The translations under genes and the position numbers were made by a program. DNA of 42,925 nucleotides. Origin: Escherichia phage DE3. Positions within the stretch are counted from its first letter, which is position 1. Each line of letters starts with the position of its first letter. The stretch lies in sequence record EU078592, one strand, 5' to 3'. Shown here piece after piece: positions 4,678 through 4,703 of this stretch. A model generated the notes under the pieces. That model did not search any database, was not told the origin of the DNA, and saw only the letters and a list, made by a program, of their open reading frames with translations.

Positions 4678-4683
4678 CGCCAA

Positions 4684-4697
4684 ATCAATACGACTCC
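4684..4697 (+). promoter_or_regulatory. Truncated T7 class II promoter remnant (phi1.1A-like), positions -17..-7 only
   Basis: AATCAATACGACTC followed directly by CGGATCC instead of ACTATAG. Confidence 0.7.
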
Positions 4698-4703
4698 GGA
4701 TCC

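Follow-up and report, generated by a model that had tools for sequence, protein, structure and literature searches.

The junction that follows gene 1 in Escherichia phage DE3 (sequence record EU078592; the window, i.e., the whole stretch that was analysed, is 42,925 nucleotides long) is most probably a scar left by cloning in the engineered lambda DE3 prophage: a T7 promoter that was cut at the plasmid stage is left as a dead remnant, lacUV5 is the sole driver of gene 1, and no terminator follows the gene. We give this reading a probability of roughly 0.93. The junction is the known scar of a known laboratory construct, and thus an engineered artefact that is not new.

In this reading, trimming at the right-hand end of the T7 fragment would have taken away the promoter phi1.1A from position -6 onward. 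The BamHI cassette, lacI, lacUV5 and lacZ' having been added to it later, would then have been transferred to a lambda vector whose int gene holds its only BamHI site. The remnant retains most of the binding half (-17 to -7) and, having lost the contact at -5, the TATA melting segment and the G at +1, would be transcriptionally dead, so that lacUV5 would be the only promoter driving gene 1, and no segment of the prophage would be read by T7 polymerase. The probable reason for the removal is that, on a circular plasmid, T7 polymerase would circle and transcribe its own gene again (positive feedback); this loop would not close in the integrated prophage. Transcripts made by the E. coli polymerase from lacUV5 would meet no intrinsic terminator and would continue antisense into an int gene that is already inactivated.

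The window opens with the 15-base att core (GCTTTTTTATACTAA, positions 1-15, a single occurrence) and ends just short of the expected position of the attR core, and it is therefore the whole lambda DE3 prophage, from attL to attR. A megablast search of complete E. coli genomes with positions 4300-5100 gave 100% identity across the junction, over the full query length, in BL21(DE3), BLR(DE3), C41(DE3), C43(DE3), Rosetta2(DE3) and similar strains. The RefSeq order in the matching region is a truncated int remnant, lacI, a lacZ fragment, a "DNA-directed RNA polymerase", a truncated integrase and an excisionase. The lambda DE3 prophage of BL21(DE3) (Studier and Moffatt 1986; RefSeq NC_012971.2 and NC_012892.2) has the same gene order and shows no difference from the window. 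The cassette lacI-lacUV5-lacZ'-T7 gene 1 is at the BamHI site of lambda int, in the opposite orientation to int, and the block map, the att core and the ybhC flank in BL21(DE3) reveal a non-lambda block (presumably the imm21 substitution), the nin5 deletion, the b-region deletion and the insertion at attB (Table 1). The junction region has every feature of lambda DE3 that was tested.

Table 1. Features of the lambda DE3 window (positions in the window; lambda blocks from the comparison with lambda)
Feature	Position	Strand	Remark
attL core (1-15) and lambda 27724-27977	1-254	.	left BamHI site at 249-254
int 3' remnant	about 89-253	-	within 1-254, up to the left BamHI site
Foreign insert	255-4696		block comparison with lambda
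Lac part of the insert	255-1999	+	linker remnant, lacI, lacUV5/L8 promoter, lacZ' fragment, hybrid junction
lacI	341-1423	+	
lacUV5/L8 promoter	-35 at 1472-1477, -10 TATAAT at 1496-1501	+	
lacZ' fragment	1546-1986	+	
BamHI/BglII-type hybrid junction GGGATCTGATCCG	right end of the lac part (255-1999)		
T7 DNA (T7 3145-5841)	2000-4696	+	uninterrupted 2697-base identity
phi1.1A remnant (T7 class II promoter), positions -17 to -7, CAATACGACTC (T7 5831-5841)	4686-4696	+	upstream polymerase-binding part only
BamHI linker and site CGGATCC, in place of promoter -6 to +1	4697-4703	.	GGATCC 4698-4703; right insert boundary in lambda int (lambda 27972)
Truncated int' ORF	4685-5608	-	Int residues 1-304 + E-S-Y; antisense to outgoing gene 1 transcripts
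xis	5586-5804	-	antisense to any gene 1 read-through; starts about 910 nt downstream
Lambda 27971-34381	4697-11108		block comparison with lambda
Non-lambda block	11109-12971		block comparison with lambda; presumably the imm21 substitution, from general knowledge of the vectors
Lambda 38591-40501	12972-14885		block comparison with lambda
Lambda 43298-48502	14876-20080		nin5 deletion between this block and 12972-14885
Lambda 1-21231	20081-41311		block comparison with lambda
Lambda 26104-27723	41306-42925		b-region deletion before this block (about 41306-41311)

The window (42.9 kb) has no more than two copies of GGATCC, at 249-254 and 4698-4703, where about 9.7 would be expected, and both copies are at the ends of the insert. 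The other four BamHI sites of lambda, which we take to be at 5505, 22346, 34499 and 41732, are all missing. Site 5505 is lost through a point change (A at 25588 of the window, C in lambda), and the other three fall within the b-region deletion (22346), the non-lambda (imm21) substitution (34499) and the nin5 deletion (41732). The loss of these sites is the design of a cloning vector with a single BamHI site. DE3 is said, in work of Studier and Moffatt from 1986 and of Davanloo et al. from 1984, to be a derivative of D69 that carries the fragment in int.

Elsewhere the window differs from the lambda reference at few places, which include 15719, 15721, 20218 and 34346. The Q protein is altered by two neighbouring substitutions, and the S, R and Rz proteins are unchanged compared to lambda. 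One base is deleted at lambda 138 and one is inserted at lambda 14267, between L and K. The sole Rfam match at the gathering score in the entire window is the lambda cIII thermoregulator (10144-10202, - strand, 88.5 bits); the same search gave no match near the junction.

In the cassette, gene 1 (T7 RNA polymerase, 2026-4677, + strand) has zero nucleotide differences from NC_001604. The left end of the T7 DNA is ambiguous by one base, and is either T7 3145 or 3146. The lacUV5 promoter (TTTACA, 18-base spacer, TATAAT; 1472-1501) is the top sigma-70-type match in the scanned region, 1400-9000. The lac promoter of the window carries the L8 change in the CAP site (A at 1442) and the UV5 change in the -10 element (TATAAT). 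The inner junctions of the cassette are also hybrid linker scars, GGATCCAGATCCCG at the left (255-270) and GGGATCTGATCCGG between lacZ' and T7 3145 (1980-2000); they are consistent with BamHI/BglII-type fusions from the stepwise building of a plasmid.

The stop codon of gene 1 (TAA) is at 4675-4677, and positions 4675-4710 read TAA, CGCCAAAT, CAATACGACTC, CGGATCC and CCTTCG. T7 reads TAACGCCAAATCAATACGACTCACTATAGAGGGACAAAC at the same place; its promoter phi1.1A, whose +1 is annotated at T7 5848, starts 26 bp past gene 1. The alignment with T7 bears out what had been noted at first reading, namely that positions -17 to -7 of a T7 promoter are kept (4686-4696, identical to T7 5831-5841, phi1.1A) and that CGGATCC replaces ACTATAG at -6 to +1. 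However, the 14-mer that the first-pass annotation equated with -17 to -7, AATCAATACGACTC, is right for its last 11 bases only, the leading AAT being positions -20 to -18. Comparison of the intact T7 form (ACTATAGAGGGA) with the prophage form (CGGATCCCCTTC) gives five substitutions up to +1, i.e., -6 A>C, -5 C>G, -4 T>G, -1 A>C and +1 G>C, whereas -3 A and -2 T are unchanged by coincidence. A chance resemblance of the 11-mer to T7 can be ruled out: it closes the 2697-base identity to T7 3145-5841, and the match is therefore by descent. In T7, phi1.1A is part of the primary replication origin. The window is identical to this region from -17 to -7 and in the 8-base spacer after the stop codon, but -6 to +6 are replaced, and phi1.1B and the remainder of the origin are absent.

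Either the linker or T7 may have supplied the C at -7 (4696), which leaves a one-base ambiguity. Either GACT was joined to CCGGATCC, with a 10-mer linker (CCGGATCCGG) and T7 ending at 5840, or GACTC was joined to CGGATCC, with an 8-mer linker (CGGATCCG) and T7 ending at 5841; the sequence is identical in the two cases. Identity to lambda restarts at 4697 (lambda 27971), and lambda too has a C ahead of its BamHI site. We assign the C at 4697 to the cassette since the T7 Express strains have it, with non-lambda DNA next to it. The T7 end may have been trimmed by an exonuclease or by a restriction cut, and the linker may have had either length, the sequence being compatible with either. GACTC is a HinfI site, and a HinfI cut followed by fill-in would give the end in GACT (T7 5840 joined to the 10-mer linker). 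However, HinfI is expected to cut T7 far too frequently, and the sequence does not separate this route from exonuclease trimming, so that we leave it as one of the two options.

On the downstream side, the + strand was scanned, and 4677-5095 holds nothing that resembles a terminator. The later candidates on this strand, at 5095-5115 and 5838-5858, have poor T tracts, and the fold of 4660-4960 is unremarkable (z = -0.5), with no significant structure. The T7 early terminator for the host polymerase, TE, is at T7 7588, outside the cloned fragment. The int' ORF reaches to within 8 bases of the gene 1 stop codon; since no intrinsic terminator intervenes, lacUV5 transcripts must run antisense into int. 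These results uphold the first-pass annotation, in which no terminator was evident after gene 1 and the lac-promoter transcripts were thought to read antisense into int. The same annotation had them probably reading into xis as well, which they may reach.

The int' ORF lacks the 52 C-terminal residues of Int, and the missing part presumably includes the catalytic Tyr342 of lambda Int. Its stop codon, TGA, is supplied by the T7 bases TCA at 4685-4687 (-18 to -16 of phi1.1A): the region of the phi1.1A remnant doubles as the stop codon of the Int fragment encoded at the junction.

How far the antisense transcripts go may depend on Rho, and we see about an even chance that Rho ends them in antisense int, a few hundred nucleotides in at most, before xis. 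Untranslated, C-rich, G-poor and unstructured RNA offers the usual conditions for Rho loading. Beyond gene 1 the RNA goes untranslated, each of its three frames closing soon; it has C-rich, G-poor windows (31% C and 12% G at 4918-4995, a C/G ratio of 2.7, and a C/G ratio of 2.0 at 5578-5655) and no notable structure, as indicated by the same z of -0.5. However, any rut site or 3' end here is putative, composition alone being a poor predictor of Rho sites; the lacUV5 promoter is strong once induced, and Rho sites themselves commonly let a part of the transcripts through. A literature search for published RNA-seq statements on read-through into int and xis in DE3 returned nothing relevant. The read-through probably has no consequences, because Int is already without its last 52 residues and the leftward operon of lambda is repressed in the lysogen. 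Close upstream of xis, at 5835-5858, is the G+C-rich hairpin CCGCCATCAGGCGG; on the - strand it is followed by TTTTTTCTT, which makes it a good terminator-like site for leftward transcripts.

The history of the cut can be traced in other strains. A search with the T7 end alone matched 28 genomes. In DE3 strains, the match continues through the junction into lambda. In the NEB T7 Express strains and their relatives (C2566, C3026, C3029), it is exact to the end of GGATCC and the sequences then diverge. In BL21-AI, BLK9 and BLK16, which carry a PCR product of the ORF alone, it ends at the gene 1 stop codon. A plasmid collection searched with the end of gene 1 gave no match.

In C2566, GACTCCGGATCC is followed by 297 bp of tet(C), 99.7% identical to the tet(C) of the pSC101/pBR322 type and ending at its BamHI position. 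This stretch is at L004 3899-4195, inverted, inside the lac locus and straight after GACTCCGGATCC. It is a fossil of the pBR322 clone that supplied the cassette. From lacI to the BamHI site (3904 bp), only four positions tell the C2566 cassette from the window, and each is within the lac promoter. C2566 has G at 1442, a -10 element reading TATGTT (1499-1500) and A at 1507 (position -1). These are probably the same three places in the promoter region where C41/C43(DE3) reportedly differ.

Since T7 Express has the same junction beside tet(C), the cut predates the lambda construct: the T7/linker junction was present in a pBR322 BamHI clone before the transfer into lambda, and was not made for the prophage. 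This fits the work of Davanloo et al. from 1984, in which clones that kept phi1.1A intact reportedly failed to survive and the cloning of gene 1 reportedly required the removal of phi1.1A, because T7 polymerase otherwise transcribes round the plasmid. The pBR322 gene 1 clones of this group (pAR1151, pAR1173 and pAR1219; Davanloo et al. 1984), as preserved in T7 Express, share the cassette and the GACTCCGGATCC junction with the window. They differ in what surrounds these: T7 Express has tet(C) DNA in the lac locus after the BamHI site and the native -10 element, whereas the window has lambda int and the L8-UV5 promoter.

The first-pass annotation proposed that an intact promoter would create a runaway loop into the prophage, and this part of it does not hold. 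Promoter phi1.1A is downstream of gene 1 and has the same direction (+ strand), and a feedback loop therefore needs a circular template, such as the pBR322 ancestor or, conceivably, a circularised phage genome. In the integrated prophage, transcripts from phi1.1A leave gene 1 and no feedback is possible. Positive feedback is documented for T7 autogenes (PMC6395690, citing Dubendorff and Studier 1991). In the autogene (Dubendorff and Studier 1991), a functional T7 promoter that transcribes gene 1 creates this feedback, whereas the promoter of the window is downstream of the gene, truncated and chromosomal, which gives none.

That the truncation shields the prophage itself from an autocatalytic loop is thus unlikely. 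The promoter is indeed destroyed, T7 autogenes do make positive feedback loops, and a loop of about 43 kb is conceivable during lytic growth, when the genome is circular or concatemeric. However, transcripts from the integrated state must cross the entire 4.56 Mb chromosome to return to gene 1, and the same junction is found next to pBR322-type tet(C) in T7 Express, so that the cut is older than the lambda construct.

An intact phi1.1A in the lysogen would have other effects. It would drive T7 polymerase rightward, on the + strand, antisense to int, xis, exo, bet, gam, cIII and N, and across imm21 into genes that it would read in sense orientation: cro, O, P, Q and, about 12 kb downstream of the junction, the lysis genes S (16764-17087), R and Rz, which are intact. 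T7 polymerase generally ignores host terminators, and expression of the lysis genes would therefore be expected. The harm from an intact phi1.1A would be this expression and disturbed repression, rather than autocatalysis.

The activity left in the remnant was estimated with a position-weight matrix made from 17 annotated T7 promoters and scored from -17 to +6, the natural range being determined by leave-one-out. Natural T7 promoters score 22.0-40.2 bits and phi1.1A 33.5 bits, vs -13.8 bits for the junction, which ranks 219th of the 85,806 positions of the window. At the junction, the binding half (-17 to -5) scores 12.1 vs 21.9 bits; for the initiation half (-4 to +6), the values are -25.9 vs +11.6 bits. 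Of the 13 positions of the binding region (consensus TAATACGACTCAC), 11 match phi1.1A, -6 and -5 being changed. The junction reads GATC in place of the TATA melting segment (-4 to -1), and CCCTTC at +1 to +6 where a T7 promoter has a purine start (G at +1, with GGG or GAG at +1 to +3); there are zero purines from -2 to +6. With its score outside the range of the natural promoters, the junction fails three of the four sequence tests for a T7 promoter, the fourth, on the binding region, giving a mixed result. Between -17 and +2 (19 positions), it departs from the consensus at 7.

No 18-mer with three mismatches or fewer to the T7 consensus is found anywhere in the window. The best site for the T7 matrix in the prophage, CAATTCCACACATTATACGAGCC, scores 4.8 bits and lies at 1490-1512 on the - strand, antisense over the lacUV5 -10 element and the operator. 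This site is almost certainly meaningless, its score being far under the natural values of at least 22 bits.

Published substitution data point in the same direction. In a T7 promoter, -17 to -5 serve for binding and -4 to +6 for initiation, and no substitution is tolerated at +1 (PMC7668259). In a library of 7847 variants with multiple substitutions, 97% have under 1% activity and the active variants carry 2.4 substitutions on average; position -5 is critical, being the commonest lesion in inactive variants whose -9 to -7 are intact (PMC5937735). The substitution -6C alone lowers the relative activity in vivo to 0.12 (PMC8359068). The exact 7-substitution variant of the junction was not found in the searchable supplementary text of Komura et al. 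2018.

Taken with the sequence statistics, these data make it almost certain that the promoter is dead. The first-pass annotation likewise held that T7 polymerase cannot initiate here, which agrees with the score (-14 vs 22-40 bits), the C at each of +1 to +3 and the published results for +1 and -5.

It is very improbable that the half-promoter binds the polymerase non-productively or initiates rarely, or else that the antisense RNA from induced lacUV5 (int, xis and beyond) measurably alters the expression or the stability of the prophage. Very improbable, too, is a partly active remnant, either as a weak start site or as a decoy or roadblock to which T7 RNA polymerase binds non-productively: the 11 intact binding positions include -11 to -7, the contact of the specificity loop, and the binding half keeps 12 bits, but the TATA melting segment and the last positions of the binding region are changed by -6C, -5G, -4G and -1C, the C at +1 to +3 leaves the polymerase with no purine to start on from -2 to +6, variants with at least six substitutions are in the under-1% class, and one weak site per chromosome could not titrate the induced polymerase.

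The value of the cloning-scar reading is that a laboratory construct is read correctly; it brings nothing new on natural biology. It accounts for the lack of a T7 promoter in the prophage and for T7 RNA polymerase being driven by lacUV5 alone in DE3 strains. It also shows a cassette without a transcription terminator, which could matter for the re-engineering of DE3 or for strand-specific RNA-seq of BL21(DE3).
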